NCBI GenBank assembly: GCA_041640655.1
Contig: JBEPZV010000001.1
Coordinates: 96,001-160,000 of the forward strand
Origin: a bacterium
Lineage (GTDB): Bacteria; Acidobacteriota; Blastocatellia; HR10
Reading direction: 5' to 3'
Length of the DNA stretch: 64,000 nt
Shown: positions 14,652-26,824 of the stretch, one piece after another
How the letters are laid out: every line of letters starts with the position of its first letter
Numbering within the stretch: the stretch's first letter is position 1
Position numbers and translations under genes: made by a program
Notes under the pieces: generated by a model
Databases searched by the model: none
The model's input: only the letters and a program-made list of their open reading frames with translations
Told to the model about the DNA's origin: nothing

Positions 14652-14709
14652 TATATAGCACGGGGTCCCTGTTTTGTCAATAGCTATAATTTCATTATAG
14701 TATTGTCAA
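14652..14709 (-). promoter_or_regulatory. Sigma70-like promoter of the TBDR/hydantoinase operon with upstream inverted repeat
   Basis: Minus strand TTGACA (14680-14675), 17-nt spacer, TATATA (14657-14652); palindrome CTATAAT-ttc-ATTATAG at 14684-14700. Confidence 0.65.
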
Positions 14710-15859
14710 TTCCACCTGATCCAGACAGCCATCCAAAGACAAAGATATGGAGGCTCAGGGGGGGGAGAATCATACAGCGCACCTCTTCGATGCTACAAGG
14801 CTGGCAGAGGCAGTGGGAGCCGGGGGAGGCCGGAGATGGGCGGTGAAGCTCGGGGATGGCGCCATGGTAGATGAGTCGCAGCCAGAGGCTCCCCCGGAGG
14901 CGGGTGCAGAGATAGTCTTCGAGCATGCGCAGAGCGAGGCCGACGGCGGCCTGGTTCAGGGAGCGAAGGCTTCCCCGCCGTTCGCTCTGCCAACGGCGAT
15001 GCCGCCGATGGGCGTGCTCCCGCAGGGCACCTTCCCGGACGACGGCCACATGCTGCTCTTGCGCCAGACTGCCCAAGCAGAGCAGGCAGTGCTCCCCGGG
15101 TACGATCCAGCGCAGATCGGCGCCGAGAAGCAGGTCGTCACCTTCGGCGGGCAACACGCCCGTGCCCACATCCAGAAGCGGCTTCAGATACAGGGCGGCG
15201 AGCACGCCGCAGGCCCAGCGGGCGCCGTCGTGATCCACGGCGCAGAGGAGCACATCGGCGGCTTTGAGGGCGGAGAGGGCCGCCACTTCGGTCACCGAGC
15301 CGACGAGCGCGTGGATGTCCGCCCTCGGATTGAGGGTGTGCAGGCTCTCGGCCAGAGCCTGAGCCTTTGGCCGTCCCACATGCTCGGGCCGGAAGCCGTC
15401 GCCATCCAGGTTGTGCTCCTCCACATGGTCGGGATCCACGAGGGTGAGGCGTCGGACGCCGCTGCGCACGAGGGTATTGGCCAGAAGCGAACCGGTGCGG
15501 CCGCAGCCGATCAGGGCGTAGTGGAGCGCGCACAGGCGCTGCCAGCCGTATTCGCCCAGGGCGCCGGCGATGCGGGAGTGGCGTTCACCGGGTTCGGGAA
15601 AGGTTTCGGGCGCGAGGTCGTGGTCTGTGATCTCCGGCAGGCCCGGGGCGATGAGGCGCAGGGTCACCGGTTCTCGCCGGCCGTCGGGGCGCAGGAGATG
15701 GGCTGCGGGGAAGCCCGCTCGCGGCACGTGAGCGATGATGATCGGGGCCGCCCGCAGGCCATGCAAGACGGGCAGCGGCATCAACAGAACGCCCGTTTCC
15801 CTGCCCTGCTCCCTCCCGCACCTGATTCTTCCGCTCGCGTCCAGAGCGACGCCAACCAT
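14684..15859 (-). CDS. ThiF/MoeB (E1-like) adenylyltransferase-domain protein, ends probably truncated
   Basis: LIGCGRTGS, LVDPDHVEEHNL, VGRPKA, AVDHDGAR, PGEHCLLC; abrupt composition change at both ends. Confidence 0.75.
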   Translation of the reverse strand: MVGVALDASGRIRCGREQGRETGVLLMPLPVLHGLRAAPIIIAHVPRAGFPAAHLLRPDGRREPVTLRLIAPGLPEITDHDLAPETFPEPGERHSRIAGALGEYGWQRLCALHYALIGCGRTGSLLANTLVRSGVRRLTLVDPDHVEEHNLDGDGFRPEHVGRPKAQALAESLHTLNPRADIHALVGSVTEVAALSALKAADVLLCAVDHDGARWACGVLAALYLKPLLDVGTGVLPAEGDDLLLGADLRWIVPGEHCLLCLGSLAQEQHVAVVREGALREHAHRRHRRWQSERRGSLRSLNQAAVGLALRMLEDYLCTRLRGSLWLRLIYHGAIPELHRPSPASPGSHCLCQPCSIEEVRCMILPPLSLHIFVFGWLSGSGGIDNTIMKL

Positions 15860-15981
15860 GTGCGAAGCAAGAGATTGAGGTGCTGGAAGACACCGGCGAG
15901 GTCAAAGGACTGCGATACCGAGTGCATGCGGATATCGGCCGGTGACCTCCGATGACTCAAGAGAGTGAAGAATTCTTCGCA

Positions 15982-16009
15982 TTGACTGAAACACGAAATC
16001 ACATATAAT
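15982..16009 (+). promoter_or_regulatory. Sigma70-like promoter for the HTH-parA-rep cassette
   Basis: TTGACT, 16-nt spacer, TATAAT, followed by the RBS GAGGGAG before ATG 16045. Confidence 0.7.
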
Positions 16010-16044
16010 AACGCATCGAAACGTTTTTCGAGGGAGTTCTGACG

Positions 16045-16287
16045 ATGGTGGCAAAAGTCGAGGTTCTTCCCATCGGCGAGGCGGCCGAGTACTTGGGCGT
16101 CTCGCGGCGCAAGATCTGGCAGTTGGTGAAACGAGGGGAGCTCCCCAGCCGACCCGATCCCCTCGATCGGAGGCGGAAGCTCGTGCGGGTGGAGGACTTA
16201 GACAAACTCCGGGAGGGATCCTATGTTCGCTACGATCGGCATCGCCAATCAGAAAGGAGGCGTCGGCAAGACAACAACGGCCGTTAA
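16045..16287 (+). CDS. Excisionase-like HTH DNA-binding protein
   Basis: LPIGEAAEYLGVSRRKIWQLVKRGEL; its 3' end overlaps parA. Confidence 0.75.
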   Translation: MVAKVEVLPIGEAAEYLGVSRRKIWQLVKRGELPSRPDPLDRRRKLVRVEDLDKLREGSYVRYDRHRQSERRRRQDNNGR

Positions 16288-17017
16288 TCTCTCGGCCTGT
16301 CTGGCCCGAATGGGACGACGGGTGCTGCTGGTGGACCTGGATGCGCAGGCGAATGCGACAAACCATGTGGGCGTGGATCCCCCGCAGGACGAGATGCTGA
16401 GCTCATACGCCCTGCTGGTGGATAAGTCGCCCAATGTGCGAGCGATTCTCACCTCCGTCTCTCCCAACCTCCAGCTCGTCCCAGGACATATCGCCCTGGC
16501 CGAAGTGGATATCAAACTCTTCTCGACGATCAACCGGGAGACGCGGCTGCAACGGGCGCTGGCGCGGCTTCGGGAGGATTTCGATTACATCGTGCTCGAT
16601 TGTCCGCCATCGCTGGGCATCGCCACGATCAACGCCTTTTGCGCGGCGACGCACCTGATCATCTGCATCCAGACGAACTGGTTCGCCTACGAGGCATTGA
16701 AACGGTTGATGTCCATTGTCGAAGACGTCATGGAGGAGACCAACCCCAATCTGGTGGTCTATGCGCTGGCGACCCTGCATCGGCCGAACGTGAACATCCA
16801 TCGAGATGTGCTCGTGAAGATCCAGGAGACCTTCGAGCACTTCGCCCTCTCGTCGGTCATCCGACACACGGCCACATTGGCCGAGGCTTCGGCGGCTCGA
16901 CAGACGATCGTCGAGTATGCGCATGGGAGTCGGGGTCACATGGACTATCAAAATCTCGCCGAGGAGATCATCAACCGTGTCGAACGAAAAGCTCTCAAGA
17001 TCGCGCAAGCACTATGA
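16223..17017 (+). CDS. parA: ParA/Soj-family partition ATPase
   Basis: NQKGGVGKTTT deviant Walker A, LLVDLDAQANAT, DYIVLDCPPSLG. Confidence 0.93.
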   Translation: MFATIGIANQKGGVGKTTTAVNLSACLARMGRRVLLVDLDAQANATNHVGVDPPQDEMLSSYALLVDKSPNVRAILTSVSPNLQLVPGHIALAEVDIKLFSTINRETRLQRALARLREDFDYIVLDCPPSLGIATINAFCAATHLIICIQTNWFAYEALKRLMSIVEDVMEETNPNLVVYALATLHRPNVNIHRDVLVKIQETFEHFALSSVIRHTATLAEASAARQTIVEYAHGSRGHMDYQNLAEEIINRVERKALKIAQAL

Positions 17018-18236
17018 GATCCCGGATCTGCGGATCTCAGACGAGGAGTCGGCAGCCATCAAGCAGATCATGCGGCGGTTGAGGGGGAAGCCCGAGGACG
17101 TCTCGAGTCCTCCAGTGGGGACTCCCCCTGAGGCCTCCCTCCCACCCCAGGAACCGCAGCCCGAAGGTGGCTCAAAACGAGCCAGCTCAAAAAGAGCCAG
17201 CTCAATGAGCCAGCTCAAAACAAGCCAGCTCAAAAAGAGCCAGCTCAATTTGAGCCAGCTCGAATTGAGCCAGCTCACAGAGAGCCAGCTCTCGATGAGC
17301 CAGCTTGACGAAAATATTGCTTTGAATTGGCGAACGATCGAGCACACGCGGATCCCGCAAGTGGTCTTCGACGAGATCCTGCCCACACTGCCGGTGGCCG
17401 CACAAGGGATCTATCTGCAGCTTCTGCGGCTGACACTGGGGTTTCATCGGCCGGTGTGTCATATCAGCCTGGAAGCCCTTAAGTCTCGATGTAATCAGAG
17501 CTTAGCTAGCGTGAAGCGCCACCTGGAGCTTTTGATCCGGCGTGGCCTAGTCCGTAAAGTGGGCGTGAGATTCGGCGGATCCGACCGCGGGAGTTATCTC
17601 ATGCCGGTCATCCCCGGAGTGTTCAATGAGGAACCAAAGCCTGAAACAAGCCAGCTCAATATGAGCCAGCTCAATACGAGCCAGCTCATAGAGAGCCAGC
17701 TCTCGATGAGCCAGCTCACAGAGAGCCAGGTCAATTCGAGCCAGCTCTCCATGAGCCAGCTCAATATGAGCCACAAGAAATATGATGATGATGATCTTGA
17801 AATAAAAAGTCATCATCAGACTGAAAAGGCGGACGACGATGACTCGCCTCATTTGAAGAAGGTCAAGGAGATCTACGCTCGGTTGACGGGGAACACGTGG
17901 ACGGTTTCGGATACGCGGGCCTACCGGGAACACGGCATCCAGCAGTACCGACTGGAGCACGTGGAGGCGATCATGGAGGCCGTGGCCGAACGAGCGCCCG
18001 AACGCATCAACAGCTTCAACTACTTCGTGCGGGAGATCGTCACCGCCGCCCGCCCCGAGAGCCGAGGCGCCCGCCGCCGCCGCCTGGAGCAGATCGTCCG
18101 ACGCCTTCAGCAGCTGCACGTGGGAGCCGCCCAGTACGGCATCGCCGACCTGGCCGAGGACGTCAAACGCGCCTGCGCCCGCGAGGGCATCCCCTTCGAC
18201 CCCGACCTCTTCAACGAAATCATCGGTTTGGGATAG
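16977..18236 (+). CDS. Putative replication initiator (central wHTH flanked by SQLxx repeat tracts)
   Basis: Directly follows parA; GTG 16977 with a GAGGAG RBS; wHTH-like IYLQLLRLTLGF...SLASVKRHLELLIRRGLV; DnaD/Rep-like C-terminal INSFNYFVREI. Confidence 0.6.
   Translation: MSNEKLSRSRKHYEIPDLRISDEESAAIKQIMRRLRGKPEDVSSPPVGTPPEASLPPQEPQPEGGSKRASSKRASSMSQLKTSQLKKSQLNLSQLELSQLTESQLSMSQLDENIALNWRTIEHTRIPQVVFDEILPTLPVAAQGIYLQLLRLTLGFHRPVCHISLEALKSRCNQSLASVKRHLELLIRRGLVRKVGVRFGGSDRGSYLMPVIPGVFNEEPKPETSQLNMSQLNTSQLIESQLSMSQLTESQVNSSQLSMSQLNMSHKKYDDDDLEIKSHHQTEKADDDDSPHLKKVKEIYARLTGNTWTVSDTRAYREHGIQQYRLEHVEAIMEAVAERAPERINSFNYFVREIVTAARPESRGARRRRLEQIVRRLQQLHVGAAQYGIADLAEDVKRACAREGIPFDPDLFNEIIGLG
17180..17306 (+). 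repeat. Tandem array 1: nine AGCCAGCT(C) units, 15-bp period with one 13-bp unit
   Basis: Starts at 17180, 17195, 17208, 17223, 17238, 17253, 17268, 17283, 17298. Confidence 0.95.
17649..17773 (+). repeat. Tandem array 2: eight AGCCAGCTC units plus one partial, 15-bp period
   Basis: Starts at 17649, 17664, 17679, 17694, 17709, 17724 (AGCCAGGTC variant), 17739, 17754 and partial 17769. Confidence 0.95.
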
Positions 18237-18319
18237 GGAAGGGAAGCCTGCCGCCTGAAATCGGCCCCTTGCGGCAGACGCTATGCCATCGCCGGACGCT
18301 TCAGGGAGAGGTCAGGACG

Positions 18320-18432
18320 GGTCAATGATGATGGCTCGGCAATTTCGGGATCATATCGGGCGTCGCAGCGGCACGGCCCGACCCCTCGTGGGCATCGTCC
18401 GGGTCGTCATCGAGAACCGGCGGGAGGGATAC
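18320..18432 (+). pseudogene. 3' remnant of a DUF3883-ended (SNF2 helicase) gene, copy 1
   Basis: MMMARQFRDH...PLVGIVRVVIENRREG; homologous to 24849-24944. Confidence 0.5.
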
Positions 18433-18439
18433 GGAAACG

Positions 18440-18570
18440 ATGCCCGAATGGGAATGGCTCGCCCAACAGATTGAAGGGCAATTCCTGAAGCGCAAAAGCT
18501 GCTCTGAGCGACGCCCGAGTGCCCTACAACTGCGTTCCATCCAGGATGCAGTCTGGGATGTGAACTTGTC
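18440..18570 (+). pseudogene. 5' stub of an AlbA_2/Schlafen-domain gene
   Basis: MPEWEWLAQQIEGQFLKRKSC resembles the EGQxxERKS start of AlbA_2 domains; similarity is lost downstream. Confidence 0.45.
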
Positions 18571-18653
18571 AACCGCTCTTGCGGTTTTATCAATCCGTCT
18601 CAGCAAATTTGCTTCGATACGAGAGCGTTTGATATTGTCAAAGGAGGATCGCC

Positions 18654-18767
18654 ATGTCCAAGTACTTCCTGATTGAAACTGCGCTACCTCTCAGGGATCC
18701 CCTTTCCCTTCAGCAGACAACCAACTCGTCCAGCATGTCAATGACGACATTTGAGGTTCCGTCATGA
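18654..18767 (+). pseudogene. DUF1156 5' stub 1
   Basis: AAGGAGG RBS, MSKYFLIETALPLR; its TGA overlaps the ATG of the next gene. Confidence 0.6.
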
Positions 18768-20047
18768 TTCGCAGAGTATTCGTGGACGGATATAAGTCGC
18801 TGAAGGACGTGGGTTTGGAATTACAGCCGCTGACCGTTATCGTCGGTCCGAACGCGGCGGGGAAGAGCAATCTCTTTGATGCCCTGCGGCTTGTCAGCCG
18901 CATCGCAACGAGCCGCTCCCTGCAGGATGCCTTCGATGACCATCGGGGCGATCCATTGGAAGCCTTTGATTACAGCGAAAGGGGCATTGCCGGGCTTTTA
19001 GAGCACGAGCGGGCGCAGTTCACCATAGAAGTAGATGTCGAGTTGAGCGATAAAACGGTAGAAGGTGCCGAGCGGCTGATCCAGATGCATCGTGCTTTCG
19101 GTGGACAGGGAAACCATAGGGGCAAGCTTCGGAAAATAACGGAGCGCTTCTTACGTTACCGCATCACCATAGAGATTACTCCGAAGACGGGCGTCTTGCG
19201 TGTTGTGGACGAACGCCTTGAGGCATTGACCCGGACTCCCGAAGGGAAACTGCGCCCCGATGAGAGGCGACGATCATTTCTGGAAAAGGTAGGGGAGCGC
19301 CTCCGATTACGGATGGAGGGACAGGCGCGTCCCACGGAGTACGAGACCGGGCTAAACTACGCCATCATCTCCCAACCGGTTTATCCGCCACACTATCCGC
19401 ATCTGGTCGCCTTCCGGGAAGAGTTGTCCGGGTGGCAGTTTTACTACTTCGAGCCACGCATCATGCGGGAAGAGTCGGCTGTCAAGGAAGTCAACCGATT
19501 GCCTTCTTCCGGTGGGGATCTGGCAGCGTTTTACTATACGCTCAAGCAAAAGAGTCCGCAGCAGTTTGAAAACCTTCAACGCACTCTAAGGTCGCTTGTT
19601 CCGACTGTAGAGGGGATTGACGCCGAGTTGACCAAAGAAGGCAAGGTGCGGCTGAAGGTCAAGGAAAGAGGTGTGGAGTTTTCTGCGAAAGTGGTCTCCG
19701 AGGGAACGCTACGCATCCTGGGGCTGATGGCGATTGTGGGTCCAACCAATCCCGCCACCGTGATTGGCTTTGAGGAGCCAGAAAACGGCGTCCATCCCCG
19801 GCGGCTCAAACTCATCGCCGACTTGCTCCGCAACGCCGCCACACACCGTCAGATCCTCGTCAACACCCACTCACCTCTTTTGCCCGATTATCTGCAGGAC
19901 GCCTACCTTGTGCAGGTCCGCAAGAGGGAGGATGGGCATAGCGAGTTTGTGCCCCTTGCGGAGGCTGGTGGTCTACAGGTAGAGAAAGCGCTGGAGGAAG
20001 AAGTGGTACCTATATCGCAACACATCCTGAGAGGGGATTGGGAATGA
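18764..20047 (+). CDS. AAA_21/ABC-type ATPase, putative defence component
   Basis: GPNAAGKSN Walker A, SEGT signature, FEEPENGVHP Walker B, NTHS H-loop. Confidence 0.88.
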   Translation: MIRRVFVDGYKSLKDVGLELQPLTVIVGPNAAGKSNLFDALRLVSRIATSRSLQDAFDDHRGDPLEAFDYSERGIAGLLEHERAQFTIEVDVELSDKTVEGAERLIQMHRAFGGQGNHRGKLRKITERFLRYRITIEITPKTGVLRVVDERLEALTRTPEGKLRPDERRRSFLEKVGERLRLRMEGQARPTEYETGLNYAIISQPVYPPHYPHLVAFREELSGWQFYYFEPRIMREESAVKEVNRLPSSGGDLAAFYYTLKQKSPQQFENLQRTLRSLVPTVEGIDAELTKEGKVRLKVKERGVEFSAKVVSEGTLRILGLMAIVGPTNPATVIGFEEPENGVHPRRLKLIADLLRNAATHRQILVNTHSPLLPDYLQDAYLVQVRKREDGHSEFVPLAEAGGLQVEKALEEEVVPISQHILRGDWE

Positions 20048-20637
20048 GCCGCACGCGTCAGGTTGTCTGCTTTTGTGAGGACATCGCTCATGAGAGGTTT
20101 ATTAAGGCTCTCATCCAGCGGGCAGGAGCAGAGAAAAATGTCGCCGTGCAAATCAAAGTGCTCAACGCCACGCACGGAAGTAAGGTGTGGAACGAGTTTC
20201 GGCAATACTTGCGAGAACTCAAGGCAGGAACGGCGTCCCTGCTCGATATTTTGGTCGTGGTGATGGATGGTAACTGCCAAACAGCAGCAAAAGTTCGGAA
20301 AGATATTGAGGAGGAGGTTATGAAGGTGGGCTTGACCATTCCCCATCTCATCTGTGCCGTTCCCGATCCCCATATTGAGCGATGGTACCTGGAAGACCAG
20401 CACGCATTCAAAAAGGTCTTGCCCAAAGTGCAGCCGCGAAAACTCCGCTACAAGTGCGAGCGCGACCGATACAAGAGAGCGCTCGTAGAAGCCATACGAG
20501 CGGCAGATATCGAGCCTCTGCTTGGAGGCGCAGAATACGGGGAAGAGATCGCCCAAGATTTAGACCCGGCCAAGCTTGATCGCTCGTTTCGAGCCTTTTG
20601 GAAAGACCTTGGTGCTGCGTTAGGAGAACACTCGTAA
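20044..20637 (+). CDS. DUF4276/RloB-like TOPRIM-type partner of the ATPase
   Basis: Coupled to the ATPase; FCEDIAHE, VVVMDGN, AVPDPHIERWYL, SFRAF. Confidence 0.65.
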   Translation: MSRTRQVVCFCEDIAHERFIKALIQRAGAEKNVAVQIKVLNATHGSKVWNEFRQYLRELKAGTASLLDILVVVMDGNCQTAAKVRKDIEEEVMKVGLTIPHLICAVPDPHIERWYLEDQHAFKKVLPKVQPRKLRYKCERDRYKRALVEAIRAADIEPLLGGAEYGEEIAQDLDPAKLDRSFRAFWKDLGAALGEHS

Positions 20638-20709
20638 ATATGAGCGACGAGAATTTTTCCAACGCAGACTCTGCGAGAAAATGGAGAATTGTATGAGAGG
20701 AGGGAAGCG

Positions 20710-20835
20710 ACGCCCCAGCGCTTTCTGGTTGAAACCGCACTGCCTCTCAAGGGGCTTTCCAAACAGGCCCGGCGTGAGAAGGCCATCCGCCACGGGCATA
20801 TGTCAGGATATACTGTAAAAGTCAGGAGGCTTTAA
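20710..20835 (+). pseudogene. DUF1156 5' stub 2 (start codon appears as ACG)
   Basis: PQRFLVETALPLKGLSKQARREKAIRHGHMS matches the typical DUF1156 N-terminus xxLIExxLPLxxISxxxxREKxIRHGH. Confidence 0.75.
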
Positions 20836-20836
20836 A

Positions 20837-23572
20837 ATGCAGAAGCGCAGTGCGAGCAAATTTGCCAAAGCTCGCTGGATACGAACAGACCTCCATCTCC
20901 ATTCGCCTGGGATCCATAGCTTTAAATTCCCCCGAGAATGGAGCGATCAACAGCAGGACCAGGTGATTGCAGAGTATATTCAGCAGCTAAAAAACCAGGG
21001 AATCCAAGCGTGTGCCATTACCGATTACCAGCAAATCCGTGAAGAGTGGTTCAACGCCATTCGAAGACAGGCCCACGAGGAGGGGATCTTCGTCTATCCC
21101 GGTGTCGAACTCTCCTTTGGGGGGACGCCCTCCGGAAAATACGGCTTACATGTTCTGGCCATCTTTCCATACGAGATGCAACCTGCTGACATCAACAGAA
21201 CGATCCAGAATCTGGATGACTGCCCAAAAGAGCCGCTGATTGGCACAGATGGAACACACCGGGATATTGTTCCAAAGGGGCGTATAGAAGAATGCCTGAT
21301 TCGTCTCCGTCAGGAAACCGGTTGCATTCTGATTTTCGCCCACTCGAATGATGACAACGGTCTGTTCAAAGCCTATCAATCCCAACAAGCCGCCGAGCTT
21401 CTCCGTCAAGTTCGGCCGGAAGCGGTGGAAAACCTCAGCGACAAGGACCGCGAGCGACTGTTGAGTACGGGCAGGCTGGACGAAGCGCTTTTGCGTCGTA
21501 TTGCCACCATCTACAACAGCGACAACCACAGTATTGACGAAATCGGCACAAAAACCCTGCCCGATGGCACCCGCCGGGCCACCTATCTGAAACTGAGCGC
21601 GCCCGACCAAATTCAGGCCATCCGTCTGGCGCTTCGGGATTGGGAGGTCCTCGTTCGCCTGAGCGAGAAGCCGGAACCCATCCATACCCGCATCGAGACG
21701 CTGGAGGTGGACGGCAAGGGCTTCCTGGGAAACTTCCGTCTGGCTTTCAGCCCCGATCTCAACGTGCTCATTGGCGGCCGTGGCGTGGGGAAATCGGCCG
21801 TGCTGGAGGTGATCCGCTATGTCCTGGACCTTCCGGTGTATGGGCCTGCGGAATACCGGGAGGGCCTGGTTCGATACGCCCTGGGAAGTGGGGGAAAGGC
21901 CATCCTCTTCCTGCACCAGGTGGTAAAACCCGGTGTCGAACGCCGCTATCGGGTGGAACGAGTCTGGGGTGAGAAACCCCGGGTCTTTGAACTCACAGAG
22001 CAGGGCGAACGCCCCATCGAATTGCTCCCTCAGGATCTCTTTACCGAAGCTGACCAGCCTCTCTTCTTCGGTCAGCGGGAGATTTACGAGATCACTCAGT
22101 CCACCCGTCTGCGGCGGAAGCTGCTCGATGACCTCATCGGCCGCCCGGCCCGCGAGCAACTTCGGGAAGTGGAAAAAATCCGCCAGGAACTGCGCCGCAA
22201 TGCCCGGGATCTTCTTGAATACCGCCGTTACGAAGAACGGATGGAGGAGGTGGAAAAACGCCTCAAGGAAATCGAACATGAGATCCGCCTTTACGAATCG
22301 CAGGGTATCGCGGAAAAGCTCAGGGAAGAAACCGCCCTCACCCGCGACGAGGAACGCTTGAAGCGCCTGGAAGAACACCGGCAGCAGTACGAACAAGAAT
22401 GGGAAGAGCTGCGTAGGCGCTGGCGGGAGCGCTGGGAGACCACGCTGGCCGACCTGGCGCAAGCGGCAAGCCGACAGAAGGACCTCATACAGGAAGCAGC
22501 TCAGGCCTTGCAAGAACTACGGAGCGCTTTTGAAACCCTCTTTTCCCAGGGTGAGGAGGCCTTGTATACATTCCGGCAGCAACTGCATTCCTTGCGGCGC
22601 CGCTGGCAGGAATCCCGGCGAGCGCTGGACGAGGAGCTGCGGCAGCTCCGCCAGCAACTGGGAGACACGGCACTGGATCCCGATCGTCTCGCCAAACTCA
22701 CCGCCGAACAAGCACGGTTAAAATACGAGCTCGAGCTGTTTCAGAAAAAGGCCGAGGAGGCGCAAAAGGCTCGCGAGGAACGGAAAGCCCTCCTTCAACG
22801 GCTCCGCGATGCCCAGCGCGAAGCGTTTCGGCTGCGCCAAAAATGGGCGGAACAAATCACCGAGCAAATTAAGGATCGAGTGCGCGTAGAGATCATTTAT
22901 CGTGGCCAGCGGAAAGAATACGCCAACCGCTTGAAGGACTTTTTCAGCGGCTCACGAGTGCCAAGCAAAGACCTGGAAAGCCTGGCTCAAAATGAAAAAA
23001 TACCCGATGGACTGGCGCTGGCGGAGCGTGCCCGCAAGGGCAAAGAGACGCTCTCCCAGGAATCGGGGCTGAGCGAGGCCCGAGCCCAGCAGCTGATTGA
23101 TTTCCTCAATCAGGATGAAAGCCGGTGGTTTGAACTGGAGTTGCTAACGCCGGATGACGAAGTGCGGGTCTCGTTGAAGGTGAACGAACGCTGGGGGATT
23201 CTGGATACACTGTCCGCTGGCCAGCGGGCCACCGCCATGCTCCTCATTCTCCTGACCCAGGCTCCTCGGCCGCTCCTGGTGGACCAGCCCGAGGATGACC
23301 TGGACAACCGCTTTATCTTCGAGGATGTGGTCCAGCTCCTGCGCCGTCAAAAGGACCGCCGCCAGCTGATCATGGCCACCCACAATGCCAACATCCCGGT
23401 GCTCGCCCATGGGGAGCTCATCGTCGCCCTGGAAGCGGAAGCGGAAAGGGCGCGCATCGCCGTTCAGGGAGGATTGGATCGTCCTGATGTGCAAGATATA
23501 GTGCGCCGGGTGATGGAGGGCGGCGAGGAAGCCTTCCGTCGGCGCGCGGAGAAATACGGACTGGAGGTTTAA
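20837..23572 (+). CDS. PHP phosphoesterase fused to a coiled-coil ABC ATPase (TrlF/Ppl-like), putative anti-phage protein
   Basis: DLHLHS, AITDY, PGVE, FAHS, NSDNH; GGRGVGKS, long coiled coil, LSAGQ, VDQPEDDLDN, ATHNAN. Confidence 0.85.
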   Translation: MQKRSASKFAKARWIRTDLHLHSPGIHSFKFPREWSDQQQDQVIAEYIQQLKNQGIQACAITDYQQIREEWFNAIRRQAHEEGIFVYPGVELSFGGTPSGKYGLHVLAIFPYEMQPADINRTIQNLDDCPKEPLIGTDGTHRDIVPKGRIEECLIRLRQETGCILIFAHSNDDNGLFKAYQSQQAAELLRQVRPEAVENLSDKDRERLLSTGRLDEALLRRIATIYNSDNHSIDEIGTKTLPDGTRRATYLKLSAPDQIQAIRLALRDWEVLVRLSEKPEPIHTRIETLEVDGKGFLGNFRLAFSPDLNVLIGGRGVGKSAVLEVIRYVLDLPVYGPAEYREGLVRYALGSGGKAILFLHQVVKPGVERRYRVERVWGEKPRVFELTEQGERPIELLPQDLFTEADQPLFFGQREIYEITQSTRLRRKLLDDLIGRPAREQLREVEKIRQELRRNARDLLEYRRYEERMEEVEKRLKEIEHEIRLYESQGIAEKLREETALTRDEERLKRLEEHRQQYEQEWEELRRRWRERWETTLADLAQAASRQKDLIQEAAQALQELRSAFETLFSQGEEALYTFRQQLHSLRRRWQESRRALDEELRQLRQQLGDTALDPDRLAKLTAEQARLKYELELFQKKAEEAQKAREERKALLQRLRDAQREAFRLRQKWAEQITEQIKDRVRVEIIYRGQRKEYANRLKDFFSGSRVPSKDLESLAQNEKIPDGLALAERARKGKETLSQESGLSEARAQQLIDFLNQDESRWFELELLTPDDEVRVSLKVNERWGILDTLSAGQRATAMLLILLTQAPRPLLVDQPEDDLDNRFIFEDVVQLLRRQKDRRQLIMATHNANIPVLAHGELIVALEAEAERARIAVQGGLDRPDVQDIVRRVMEGGEEAFRRRAEKYGLEV

Positions 23573-23575
23573 GCG

Positions 23576-24748
23576 ATGAACGAGCTGGAACTCCTGGAAC
23601 GTATCCAACGAGGAGAAAATCTGCACACAGAATTTAAACGGGAAGATGCGCAGTCCGATGACATCGCCGCCTCCCTGGTGGCCTTCGCTAACACGGACGG
23701 CGGCCAGCTGATCTTCGGCGTGACCGACGATGGACAGATTGTGGGTGTCCCGGATCCCGACCGCCTGATGCAGCGGGTAGACCAGATCGCCTACCAGAAC
23801 TGCGAGCCGCCCATCACCGTGCTTCAGGAAACCGTGCGCACCGGGAGGGGCACCGTGGTGGTGGTTCACATCCCCAAAGGCGACCAGCGTCCCTATCGCA
23901 CGAACCGGGGGGACTTCTTCATCCGCACCAGCTCGGGACGACGTCGTGCTTCCCGTCAGGAACTCCTGCGTCTCTTCCAGTCGGTGGAGAGTCTCTACTA
24001 CGACGAAACCCTCGTGCTAAGGGCGGATCTGGCTGATTTGGATCTGGATCATTTCAAGCGGTTCTTCGCCCGCGCTTACCCTGACCAGGCGCTCTCCGAA
24101 GAGAACCTGCTTCCTGTATTGCAAAACATGAAGCTGGTGGGCCAGCACCAGCACCGCTGGGTCCCCACCGTGGCCAGCCTCCTCTGTTTCGGTAAGGACC
24201 CCCAGCGTTTCCTTCCCGGCGCTGAGATTCGAGCCGCGCGTCTCCCCGGAACCACGCTCGCTGCCGAGCCCGGCGACGCCAAATCCATAGGCGGCAACCT
24301 CTTCGACATGCTGGAGGACGCCATGCGTTTCCTCCACATTCACTTGCCTGTTGTCCATCGAATCCGTGGACTGGAGCCGGAAAGGCATCCCATGATTCCT
24401 GATGAAGCCCTACGGGAGCTTCTGGTGAACGCGCTGGTGCACCGCGACTACACCATTACCGCTCCCGTTCGCGTGTTGCTCTTCGACGATCGACTGGAGA
24501 TCCGCACACCGGGACAGTTGCCGAACACGGTAACCGTGGAGGCTATCCTTCTTGGAGCAGCCCACGTATTGCGGAATCCCACCATCTACCTGATGTTTTA
24601 CCGCGCCGGCTTGGTTACTCACCTCGGAAGCGGCGTCCTGCGGGCCAAACAGGCGCTCGAGCGTAGCGGCAAGAGGCTGCAAATGCAGCAGTCCGAAACG
24701 GAATTCATCTCCACGATTCTCTGGGAACAGGATGGAGGTCTGCCATGA
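23576..24748 (+). CDS. AlbA_2 (Schlafen-like) plus HATPase_c_4 domain protein
   Basis: GENLHTEFK, AFANTDGGQLIFGV, LRELLVNALVHRDY, RNPTI, GSGV. Confidence 0.88.
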   Translation: MNELELLERIQRGENLHTEFKREDAQSDDIAASLVAFANTDGGQLIFGVTDDGQIVGVPDPDRLMQRVDQIAYQNCEPPITVLQETVRTGRGTVVVVHIPKGDQRPYRTNRGDFFIRTSSGRRRASRQELLRLFQSVESLYYDETLVLRADLADLDLDHFKRFFARAYPDQALSEENLLPVLQNMKLVGQHQHRWVPTVASLLCFGKDPQRFLPGAEIRAARLPGTTLAAEPGDAKSIGGNLFDMLEDAMRFLHIHLPVVHRIRGLEPERHPMIPDEALRELLVNALVHRDYTITAPVRVLLFDDRLEIRTPGQLPNTVTVEAILLGAAHVLRNPTIYLMFYRAGLVTHLGSGVLRAKQALERSGKRLQMQQSETEFISTILWEQDGGLP

Positions 24749-24784
24749 TAGGTAACATCGAAGCAAAAACGGAGGGCATGAGCC

Positions 24785-24847
24785 ATGGCTTCTGACCGCC
24801 TCCTCATCGAATCCACCCTTCCGCTGCGAGCGCTTTCCGAAGAGGCG
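24785..24847 (+). pseudogene. DUF1156 5' stub 3
   Basis: GGAGGG RBS, MASDRLLIESTLPLRALSEEA. Confidence 0.6.
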
Positions 24848-24848
24848 C

Positions 24849-24944
24849 ACCATCCAGAACCCGACCGCTCATCTCAAAGCGCAGCCCATTGTGGGTGTGG
24901 TCAAGCTCGTCATCGAGAACCGGCGGGAGGGAGGCCGGCCATAA
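24849..24944 (+). pseudogene. 3' remnant of a DUF3883-ended gene, copy 2
   Basis: TIQNPTAHLKAQPIVGVVKLVIENRREGGRP-stop; 26 bp identical to 18404-18429. Confidence 0.55.
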
Positions 24945-24974
24945 GCCCAAACCGCCTGCGCGAACTCATCAGGC

Positions 24975-25312
24975 TGGGAAACAATACTTTCTTGGTTCTG
25001 GGTGGATATGGCGGCGCGGGACTCTCTATTGCCCATTTCCTTCTTCAAGAAACGAATGTCCGGCTAATTCTTGCCGGGCGAAGCCGGGAGAAGGCGGGAG
25101 AGATAGCAGAGCAATTGAATGCTGAATTCCGAGGGGGCAGGGTTCAGTGGCGCTATGCCGATGCTGCCGATGTGCAAAGCCTGACCACTGCGCTTGAGGG
25201 ATCGGATCTGTTGCTTGTTTGCTCTACGACTACGCGGTATGCGGAGCAGATTGCCAGAACTGCGCTCCTGGCTGGCTTGGACTACATGGACATCATTAAC
25301 CAGGAGATATAA
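24975..25312 (+). pseudogene. Saccharopine-dehydrogenase-like NAD-binding fragment
   Basis: FLVLGGYGGAG, LILAGRSREKA, GLDYMDI then stop; no C-terminal domain. Confidence 0.65.
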
Positions 25313-25315
25313 GCG

Positions 25316-26824
25316 ATGAAAAAGCCATGGTCGAATTTTATCGTTGGGATCATGCTGACGCTGACGGCGTGCAACTTGAATCAAACAGCGTCTCTCCAAT
25401 CGCCGTCGTCTGCGCAGAATCAACCTCATCCCACATTCGTGGAAATTCGAGTGAACGGCGCGCTCCGATATCAAACCTTCGAAGGCTTCGGCGGGACCGT
25501 TACCATCTTTGAGGATGAGGGCATTTACCATCGCCACGATCCCTCGCAACCGGTCAAGACCACGGCAACACAAGCGCAACGGGCGGACATCGCCAAACTG
25601 CTTTTTTCAGATCTCGGTATCACCCGCGCCCGCGTCTTCCCCATCAACCACGAGCCCTCCAACGACAACGCCGATCCATTTACCCTCGAGCCAGCCGCAT
25701 TCGACTGGTACCTCACCGACGCGTTGATTGACTTTGTGAAATTATCGCGCCCCTACGGTTTGAAGAACTGGTGGGCGTCCTTTGCCGTGGACGGCGGTCA
25801 CCAACAGGCATGGCTGCGAAAAGCGGGGAGCCCCTGCGCCCTTGACCCCACCATGATTGACGAAGATGTGGAATGGATCCTGGCAGCCGCCCTGCGCTTC
25901 CGCGACGCGGGACAGGAACTTCCCTATCTCACCATCAACAATGAGCCCGATCTATGCCCGCCCGGCTACAAGATCGAGATTGGCGATTACGTAACGATCG
26001 TCAAACGCCTCGGCGCGCGCCTGCGGGCGGAAGGGCTTTCCACGATGATAGTCGTCTCCGACGGCTGGATACCGCAAAACGCTTTGCTGTACATGCAAGC
26101 CGCGCTCGCCGACCCCGCGGCGCGTCAATATGTCGGCGCGCTCGCGTATCACGCCTATGCGGATGGATACGATGACCCGAACACCTTATTGAACTCATCG
26201 GCGGTGAGCCAGCCTCCTCAAGCCGCCGTTGAAATTCGCCGGAAGATTCGCGAACTCGGCGCGCAATACAACCTGCCGATCTGGATGACCGAAGTCTGTT
26301 ATTGCGTTCCCAGGCCATTCAGCGATTTCGACCTGATCCGCGCCAGGCTCAACCATCTTCACGATGAGTTGACCTATGGGAATGTTGCCGCGTTCGATGT
26401 CATGAATCTCTTTTTTCTCAAGCGCCCCCATGTCAGGGATGAATTGGTGGAAATCAACTTCAACCCGCAGGGTGCGCTCGAAAGTTACGCGATCTCCGCG
26501 TACGGATATTTGCTCGGGCACTACTCCCGCTTCATCGTTCCCGGTTCGACTCGCTTGGACGCCTCCTCCAGTGATCCACGCCTGCGCGTGGTGGCGTTTG
26601 AAAGACCCGATGGAAAAGTTGTCATCGTCGCCATTAACAACAATCCGTACGGTGTCACGGTCAACGTGAATCTGGCAGGCTTGCGTCAAATGCCAACCTC
26701 CATGAGCGTGCTGACCAGCCGCGCAGGGGCAATATGGGAGAGCATCCCCGACATAACCATCAACGGCTCAACCGCTGCTGTTGCGCTATCGCCGCTAAGC
26801 GTGACCACAATAACGGGCAAGTAG
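25316..26824 (+). CDS. Glycoside hydrolase (GH30-like, clan A) lipoprotein
   Basis: Lipobox LTAC, YQTFEGFGG, INNEP acid/base, IWMTE nucleophile, HYSRFIVPGS, beta-sandwich C-terminus. Confidence 0.85.
   Translation: MKKPWSNFIVGIMLTLTACNLNQTASLQSPSSAQNQPHPTFVEIRVNGALRYQTFEGFGGTVTIFEDEGIYHRHDPSQPVKTTATQAQRADIAKLLFSDLGITRARVFPINHEPSNDNADPFTLEPAAFDWYLTDALIDFVKLSRPYGLKNWWASFAVDGGHQQAWLRKAGSPCALDPTMIDEDVEWILAAALRFRDAGQELPYLTINNEPDLCPPGYKIEIGDYVTIVKRLGARLRAEGLSTMIVVSDGWIPQNALLYMQAALADPAARQYVGALAYHAYADGYDDPNTLLNSSAVSQPPQAAVEIRRKIRELGAQYNLPIWMTEVCYCVPRPFSDFDLIRARLNHLHDELTYGNVAAFDVMNLFFLKRPHVRDELVEINFNPQGALESYAISAYGYLLGHYSRFIVPGSTRLDASSSDPRLRVVAFERPDGKVVIVAINNNPYGVTVNVNLAGLRQMPTSMSVLTSRAGAIWESIPDITINGSTAAVALSPLSVTTITGK

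Follow-up and report, generated by a model that had tools for sequence, protein, structure and literature searches.

In the 64,000-nt stretch of DNA analysed here (the window; positions 96,001 to 160,000 of contig JBEPZV010000001.1, assembly GCA_041640655.1, from an acidobacterial genome of the lineage HR10), positions 18382-24944 hold a stack in which three 5' stubs of the gene hmaB and two 3' tails of the gene hmaA lie around two intact defence cassettes. Both genes belong to the Hma defence locus, which encodes the helicase HmaA, the DUF1156 methylase HmaB and the DUF499 ATPase HmaC. On the plus strand, to which all coordinates of the stack refer, the order is A1 - B1 - HEC-01A/B - B2 - Ppl/AlbA_2 - B3 fused to A2 - dehydrogenase fragment, where A marks an hmaA tail and B an hmaB stub. 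A1 (18382-18474, ..ARPLVGIVRVVIENRREG..) is a remnant of about 30 codons followed by a stop that ends at 18474, and a 180-bp spacer separates this stop from the start of B1, which is 13 codons long (18654-18692, MSKYFLIETALPL). The first cassette consists of an ABC-type ATPase gene of the AAA_21/AAA_15 kind (HEC-01A, 18764-20047, 427 aa) and the gene of a DUF4276 protein (HEC-01B, 20038-20637, 199 aa), which overlap by 10 nt. B2 follows (20710-20799, ..PQRFLVETALPLKGLSKQARREKAIRHGH), with 30 codons that are broken after ..IRHGH, and then the second cassette, which comprises Ppl (20837-23572, 911 aa), with a PHP-like domain and an ABC/SMC-type ATPase, and the gene of a protein that joins a Schlafen-type AlbA_2 domain to HATPase_c_4 (23576-24748, 390 aa). 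The last stub, B3 (24785-24847, 21 codons, MASDRLLIESTLPLRALSEEA), is fused at its end to A2 (24849-24944, ..TIQNPTAHLKAQPIVGVVKLVIENRREGGRP stop), the last 31 codons of an hmaA gene with their stop codon, in a frame that differs from that of B3. This stub-delimited structure is not an assembly artefact: contigs of four public runs from four studies carry it, one of them spanning 18078-26500 with 0 differences (all four runs hold the stretch as contigs, and three of them may be the source sample of this DNA), and two metagenome contigs are 100% identical to it over 15670-22197 and 19992-24446.

The identity of the stubs rests on a 34-residue profile of the hmaB N-terminus, built from 25 intact N-termini of other genomes with the window excluded. 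Its top three six-frame segments in the whole window are B2 (E 2.1e-11), B3 (E 0.015) and B1 (E 0.22). B2 also matches the PADLOC model of HmaB (E 1.3e-5, positions 8-38 of 967) and, under the curated cut-off, Pfam DUF1156 (E 0.002), and its start codon has decayed to ACG. B1 is most similar to B2, and over codons 5-13 the two share 4 identical codons, with 4 synonymous changes and 1 I/V change in the others. Among the 3' ends, A2 ranks first in the window with a profile built from 13 tails of hmaA that read like 'WLYVVF..IQNPA.L..P.V' (E 0.0014); this profile supersedes an earlier one from 4 type-1 hmaA tails only, with which A2 had scored E 0.93. A1 has no direct match to PADLOC, Pfam or the 13-tail profile and is called an hmaA tail because of its likeness to A2. 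The two have 48 nt in common at 83% identity (18382-18429 and 24885-24932; repeat family D2), and the last 26 nt of this block are identical (18404-18429 and 24907-24932) and end in a Shine-Dalgarno-like GGGAGGGA. A search for longer protein relatives of A1 ended with none of 7 candidates scoring. We also considered A1 and A2 as hmaC tails, as hmaC C-termini (..VVRTVTENSRTL..) are alike by eye, but a 14-tail hmaC profile gave nothing meaningful (A1 E 18). Similarly, the 70 nt between B1 and HEC-01A resemble an hmaA tail by eye; the hmaA-tail profile gave no support for this, and the 70 nt have no BLAST relatives in any fetched locus.

Patterns written from the stub and tail motifs match only these three and two sites in the 3.1-Mb genome, the patterns having been composed after the stubs had been seen. 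A first-pass annotation of the window, made from its letters, had described three diverged copies of one gene start at the module boundaries and two gene ends with 26 identical bp bracketing the block, and had assigned the former to DUF1156 and the latter to DUF3883. These descriptions are borne out, as hmaB 5' stubs lie at those places on the plus strand, the 26-bp identity is exact, and the gene starts are those of hmaB and the gene ends those of hmaA, a SNF2 protein with NOV_C (the old DUF3883).

Both cassettes belong to described families. HEC-01A matches its PADLOC model at E 3.8e-67 over positions 1-397 of 464 and Pfam AAA_21 at E 4.4e-32, and HEC-01B matches Pfam DUF4276 at E 1.2e-8 (35.9 bits, the cut-off being 30.2, over positions 1-191 of 192) and PADLOC HEC-01B at E 9e-8. 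The pair at 18764-20637 is thus a HEC-01 system as defined, an ABC-type ATPase adjoining a DUF4276 partner. In the text of the paper that defined HEC-01, the partner is described as TOPRIM, and the representative assayed protected against none of the phages tried (Payne 2024, 10.1101/2024.01.29.577857). Ppl matches PADLOC at E 6.3e-46, Pfam SMC_N at E 9e-8 and AAA_21 at E 2.8e-7, and PHP weakly at E 0.0026, below the cut-off; with a PHP-like N-terminal domain and an ABC/SMC-type ATPase, the gene at 20837-23572 conforms to the Ppl definition. The gene behind it matches Pfam SLFN_AlbA_2 (E 4.7e-25) and HATPase_c_4 (E 1.2e-14). Of the 77 loci holding Ppl relatives (34-64% identity; contigs L152 and L153, identical to the window, are left out of the count), 69 have an AlbA_2/HATPase_c_4 homologue directly 3' of Ppl, and this Ppl subfamily therefore looks like a two-gene module. 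PADLOC matches the module with a single family only, Ppl. All four cassette genes are intact, no difference in them is reported in the main-depth contigs of the four runs, and the cassettes may still be active.

Of the Hma core, by contrast with these cassettes, little more than gene ends is left. The genome, 89.8% complete, contains no match to HmaA or NOV_C, the locus itself keeping only tails of about 30 codons; a genome-wide search for HmaB finds B2 alone, with 0 matches to an internal methylase segment (the window genome is G000 in our set); and no match to the DUF499 ATPase HmaC appears in the genome at E<=10. Full-length HmaA, HmaB and HmaC are all missing, so that the locus does not itself count as a Hma system, and the earlier claim of an array that outlived its core system agrees with what is found at the locus and in the genome. 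The fragment at 24960-25312 (plus strand), which follows A2, encodes a truncated, saccharopine-dehydrogenase-like NAD(P)-binding protein that matches Pfam Sacchrp_dh_NADP (E 3.4e-12) over profile positions 2-99 of 129 only; the right-hand boundary of the deletion in which the Hma core was lost lies at this fragment. B3, A2 in the wrong frame and this fragment together form a single open frame of 175 aa (24785-25312), which gene callers would call as a protein.

In intact Hma loci the gene order is hmaA - cargo - hmaB - hmaC, and relatives of both cassettes are found in such surroundings. Hma genes adjoin relatives of HEC-01A (45-66% identity) in 12 of 80 loci, and the order hmaA, HEC-01A/B, hmaB is seen in six (L063, L073, L079, L085, L109 and L118). 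Hma signals adjoin Ppl relatives in 29 of the 77 loci. Ppl-AlbA_2 directly follows hmaA in L193, L199 and L223, with hmaB next in L193 and L223, and in L178, L181 and L203 an hmaB start follows Ppl-AlbA_2 while the upstream side is lost at the contig end. The arrangements in the window, HEC-01 followed by B2 and Ppl-AlbA_2 followed by B3, mirror these intact orders with a stub in place of hmaB. The first-pass annotation had proposed to look for homologues of the cargo at the junction of helicase and methylase genes. They lie there in the six HEC-01 loci and in L193 and L223, and linkage of the cargo to Hma is not universal, with 12/80 and 29/77 loci.

The stubs themselves appear to record which cargo they once followed. 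We compared them with 57 hmaB N-termini pooled from all sets, 10 of which form the HEC-01 set. Eight of the ten N-termini nearest B2 belong to that set. The five nearest B3 come from L223, L193, L170 (twice) and L049, and share 10-11 of 18 residues with it, the next best sharing 8; in L223, L193 and L170, an hmaB gene or stub comes immediately after Ppl-AlbA_2. By subtype, B2 thus matches the hmaB genes found after HEC-01 relatives and B3 those found after Ppl relatives. The differences between the stub copies are mostly synonymous or conservative, i.e., of the coding kind, and the copies therefore probably diverged as working genes of separate lineages and not as local duplicates. Both observations fit the earlier proposal that the cargo came from several donors.

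Stubs of this kind recur in other genomes. In G301, an hmaA gene is followed by a 143-bp stub, TmtA-like cargo, hmaB and hmaC; the stub has 89.5% identity with the resident hmaB 5' end, begins 1 nt before the ATG and carries a frameshift. The intact Hma locus of G165 reads hmaA, ATPase, stub, HEC-07, hmaB, hmaC, a stub lies 2 kb upstream of hmaB in G045, and in G073 a stub that is 96% identical to a nearby hmaB 5' end, together with a ministub, lies upstream of a second, broken hmaB copy. Orphan stubs with no core occur in G332 (beside HEC-04), G098, G148, G106 and G258. The contig L089 (labelled Planctomycetota) holds a stub, HEC-01A/B and two further stubs with no core, and in the unrelated metagenome contig L170, Ppl and AlbA_2 precede three hmaB stubs, of which the middle one is fused to an hmaA tail (at about 3555/3564). 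In L089 (2318-5134), two small open reading frames (ORFs) lie between the second and third stubs, one with a nucleotidyltransferase-like motif by eye, and past the third stub an opposite-strand ORF of 486 aa may encode a transposase.

The recurrence was also counted over 401 genomes of the phylum, in matches at E<=1e-4, a frame being called short if it has <200 aa and lies away from contig ends. The N-terminal hmaB model gave 114 matches, 100 of them at this threshold, of which 68 lie in frames >=700 aa and 14 in short frames; the 14 correspond to 13 stubs in 13 genomes, the window genome included. An equally conserved internal hmaB segment gave 101 matches, 94 at the threshold, with only 3 of the 94 in frames <200 aa. 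Two unpublished genomes, G049 and G024, add one intact-looking match each to these tallies. At the other end of the gene, orphan matches to the HmaB C-terminus (100-150 residues, in frames of 117-340 aa) were seen at G172:C1:672309-672740, G367:C1:890140-890589, G399:C2:2551730-2552062 and G316:C244:2946-3134; they may be 3' tails bounding an hmaB-hmaC slot or a separate small protein family.

One could suppose that the stubs were retained because they are useful. They could provide the downstream cargo with a ribosome-binding site and a start codon, and with translational coupling or a site for a regulator. In the window, AGGAGG sits 6 nt before the ATG of B1, the frame of B1 reads to a TGA that overlaps the start of HEC-01A (ATGA), and the frame of B2 terminates 1 nt ahead of the ATG of Ppl, as such a role would predict. 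However, the start of B2 is now ACG, the stub of G301 is frameshifted, stub lengths vary, and the orphan stubs of G098 and G258 have no cargo downstream. A frame that ends beside a start codon would also be expected if the donor's hmaA tail ended there, and we regard a retained function as very improbable.

The history that we favour instead, at a probability of roughly 65%, is a serial import in which cargo arrived with the hmaB 5' end of its donor, through one homologous joint in the conserved DUF1156 block and one joint that was not homologous, followed by deletion of the core. The locus would then be the remainder of a Hma defence locus whose hmaA-hmaB slot had taken in DNA from other Hma loci on at least three occasions. 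With the cargo would each time have come the hmaB 5' end of the donor itself and, in some imports, part of its hmaA tail as well. On the right, the joint would be homologous and lie within the highly conserved DUF1156 block of about 200 bp, and the left-hand joint would be non-homologous and lie in the 5' end of the resident hmaB, upstream of the crossover, the process being homology-facilitated illegitimate recombination or an equivalent. In this way the resident 5' end would stay as a dead stub upstream of the new cargo, the methylase gene would be kept whole, and repeated imports could build A1 - B1 - HEC-01 - B2 - Ppl/AlbA_2 - B3 fused to A2, with the newest import nearest hmaB. A donor fragment that starts inside the donor's hmaA tail would give a stub-to-tail fusion, as at 24847/24849 and in L170. 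Later deletions would have taken most of hmaA, as well as the stretch adjacent to A2 through hmaB and hmaC into the neighbouring dehydrogenase gene, and the self-contained cassettes would have survived this loss of the core.

We infer the type of the joints and the order of events from the footprints. An exchange that is homologous at both flanks would leave no stub, and therefore each event needs at least one non-homologous joint. Joints within hmaA would destroy it, and the gap between hmaA and hmaB is about a dozen bases (G301), so that the surviving joints should fall in the hmaB 5' end. The short stubs (frames <200 aa) indeed cover about 13-67 codons, inside the conserved block, a length to be expected with a left joint that has to precede the crossover. 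Stacking by recombination through conserved flanks had already been suggested in the first-pass annotation; the exchange through the conserved DUF1156 block is retained from that suggestion, and the sufficiency of the flanks is given up, given the need for a non-homologous joint.

The fusion of an hmaB stub to an hmaA tail, seen twice independently (B3 with A2 here and the fusion in L170), invites another explanation, in which cassettes move as circles, excised from the part of a Hma locus that runs from the hmaA tail to the hmaB 5' end. Such circles would carry a stub-to-tail junction and could enter another locus through a single homologous, Campbell-type crossover, either in the DUF1156 block or in the tail of hmaA, giving the order stub, hmaA tail, cargo, hmaB. 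The direct repeats that flank cargo, e.g., B1 and B2, or the stub and the resident 5' end in G301, are consistent with this route as well. On the other hand, the stub ends before related cargo differ, B1 ending after codon 13 and the stub of L089 near codon 19 (the HEC-01A proteins are only 47% identical), and in L193, L199 and L223 Ppl has no hmaB stub upstream of it. No circular or excised form was present in the contigs of the four runs, from which rare forms would be missed, and the formation of a circle itself requires an illegitimate joint. We consider circles unlikely, although a circle with a single crossover gives the same products as the linear import, and the two models cannot be separated here.

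A deletion between neighbouring Hma copies would yield a stub-to-tail fusion too, and the stack could be what is left of tandem complete Hma systems that collapsed by separate deletions, each of which took out the DNA between an hmaB 5' end and the hmaA tail or cargo that came next, so that stubs mark deletions and not imports. Pairs of hmaB genes within about 7 kb do exist (G186:C1:4200143-4209058, G148:C1:3482549-3489701 and G196:C1:3924733-3933742); however, the two genes of each pair are divergent in orientation and not in tandem. Moreover, at least three deletions would be required, each starting in the first 13-30 codons of hmaB. In G301, G165 and G045 the stubs lie inside a single intact locus with one hmaA, one hmaB and one hmaC, and because of such cases tandem collapse is the less economical account and, in our view, an improbable one.

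Several points weigh against serial import. No donor was found, and hence no joint could be checked for microhomology. On their own, B1 (E 0.22) and A1 (no profile match) are weak, and the perfect identity of A1 and A2 over 26 nt, beside 6 differences in the preceding 22 nt, is not accounted for by the model. For B2, the HEC-01 set leads by little, with 16-17 of 28 identical residues against 15-16 of 28 for other subtypes. The nearest Ppl relatives (L158, 64%; L154, 56%) lie outside the hmaA-hmaB slot; in the closest Ppl loci (these two and L165-L169), Ppl and AlbA_2 stand between hmaB and hmaC. Embedded cargo elsewhere mostly has clean junctions, and clear multi-stub stacks were seen in only 2 of 41 cargo-selected loci with Hma signals (L089 and L170). 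The contrast of 13 with 3 short frames overstates the enrichment, since genomes of one phylum are not independent, and the first 20 regions inspected had partly been picked for their stub matches. Finally, with the genome at 89.8% completeness, a core copy could lie on an unassembled piece.

The community data bear on donors and on excision. In the very deep run X2, a low-depth contig (10.6 against ~3,700) links letters like those of B3 to letters like those of B2 (24837; 20765-20795), and its loose end past 20795 translates, in our own reading of 30 letters, as ..GHISTLHVWW... By its letters, this end appears to belong to an hmaB of the same subtype whose 5' part has no break; an intact relative of the lost gene thus seems to be present in the community, and possible donors may share the habitat. 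In run X4, a second HEC-01 variant occurs at similar depth over about 18816-20653 and covers the HEC-01 genes only. It differs at scattered bases, 12 of them in one contig of 177 nt, and the doubling of depth over HEC-01 and not over the flanks indicates that a close copy of the cassette exists in another context in the community. The products joining the two 26-bp repeats that had been proposed as a check did not turn up, no joint between 18404-18429 and 24907-24932 being present in the contigs of the four runs, which rare forms would escape. No RNA data set is listed among those that carry the stretch. In a blastn search of 16000-26000 against all fetched loci, matches fell inside the HEC-01 genes only, with no close DNA relative of the junctions.

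Outside the stack, the left side (16045-18236, plus strand) holds a small candidate helix-turn-helix ORF, seen by eye, followed by ParA (16223-17017; Pfam AAA_31/ParA-type, E 3.7e-54) and a gene for a Rep-like winged-helix protein with SQL repeats (16917-18236), with weak matches to HTH_36 (E 2.5e-4) and Phage_rep_O (E 0.0022). The ParA and Rep-like genes are plasmid-type or island-type baggage to the left of the remnant. Within the Rep-like gene, two blocks of 15-nt tandem repeats (17175-17335 and 17616-17791; 11 copies) encode SQLxx pentapeptides flanking the helix-turn-helix; the two blocks are about 70% complementary to each other and may be iteron-like sites inside the gene. A ThiF/E1-like gene on the minus strand (14684-15859; Pfam ThiF, E 7e-28), overlapped by an antisense ORF of 402 aa, is located where the island begins on the left, in a patch with 65-69% G+C, and PADLOC E1-E2 models match only its ThiF part (E 1e-16). 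In the spacer between A1 and B1, a 78-aa ORF (18440-18676, plus strand) has its ATG 10 nt past the 26-nt block; it has no Pfam match, its best PADLOC match is at E 0.06, and BLAST found no relative of it among the fetched loci. No tRNA genes lie in the window, and a promoter and terminator scan of 18000-25500 found no excess over shuffles. Further out, on both sides, are ordinary chromosomal genes, e.g., those of a TonB-dependent receptor, a GH30-like hydrolase and a multicopper oxidase.

Defence systems embedded inside Hma, BREX, DISARM and Type I restriction-modification loci are documented. For Hma, the text of Payne (2024, 10.1101/2024.01.29.577857) reports embedded genes in 931 of 1,485 systems, from which HEC-01 was defined; the set excluded loci with pseudogenes or repeated hma genes, and for the origin of the embedded genes that text offers only the idea of a 'genomic sink'. 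Insertions in about 66.5% of hma loci are given in the text of Liu (2024, PMC11232893), which lists Septu, PARIS and Ppl, the last in hma loci of Halomonas. Hma has since been renamed a Type-1 DUF499-centred BREX-related system, with DUF1156 as the conserved helical N-terminal domain of the methylase, in the text of Rakesh and Krishnan (2026, PMC12839542). That the helicase-methylase junction is a variable slot, as the first-pass annotation had it, is thus correct and already in print, as far as the texts of Payne (2024) and Liu (2024) go. As searched, the texts of these three papers mention neither gene-end stubs nor a recombination route for the insertions; in that of Liu (2024), 'recombination' is used solely of recombination-related Pfam families near hmaA, and 'truncat' only of protein constructs. 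Supplements aside, we found no report of hmaB stubs in the literature on Hma, DUF1156 or embedded defence systems. The slot and both cargo types are therefore known, and the stub-delimited orphan stack is unreported as far as our searches reach. The locus resembles Hma loci with embedded systems in its family ends (hmaA and hmaB), its slot and its types of cargo, and differs from them in having no core and in cassettes that are bounded by repeated hmaB stubs and hmaA tails.

If read correctly, stubs of the flanking genes would be physical footprints of insertion, pointing to exchange between Hma loci through the DUF1156 block and without a dedicated recombinase; they would predict the order of acquisition and offer a sequence marker for tracing the origins of stand-alone systems such as HEC-01 and Ppl. 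The locus itself shows that cassettes once embedded can persist after their host system is lost. A broader generalization, which we advance tentatively and hold to be somewhat short of an even chance, is that the hmaB 5' block (DUF1156) and the hmaA tail serve as universal homology arms, which would make every Hma locus an integrase-free platform for cassette capture. Were this true, cassettes would hop between distant Hma loci, each hop could leave a dated stub, a stack would be a time-ordered record, and stubs beside defence genes that now stand alone would reveal an earlier residence inside Hma.

The system thus outlined can be set beside others in which foreign modules accumulate. In naturally transformable bacteria, homology-facilitated illegitimate recombination reportedly inserts foreign DNA by means of one homologous anchor and a nearby illegitimate joint, the combination proposed here, whereas for this organism and for Hma loci the process would be read from footprints only. 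Integron arrays consist of promoterless cassettes stacked at one site, and the present stack resembles them in that its modules lie on the same strand and their order may reflect acquisition. However, its boundaries are pieces of coding sequence with variable ends and not recombination sites, and no integrase was found among the 9 ORFs scanned in 14684-25312 (attC sites were not searched for). Another likeness is with the orphan toxin-immunity arrays that are said to lie downstream of rhs and cdiA, where modules enter by recombination in a conserved block of a large gene and displaced modules stack, each with a short piece of the block. In those arrays the piece that recurs comes from the same gene, being its 3' core, and the displaced modules are toxin tips, whereas here it is the 5' end of the downstream gene, and the modules are whole defence operons.

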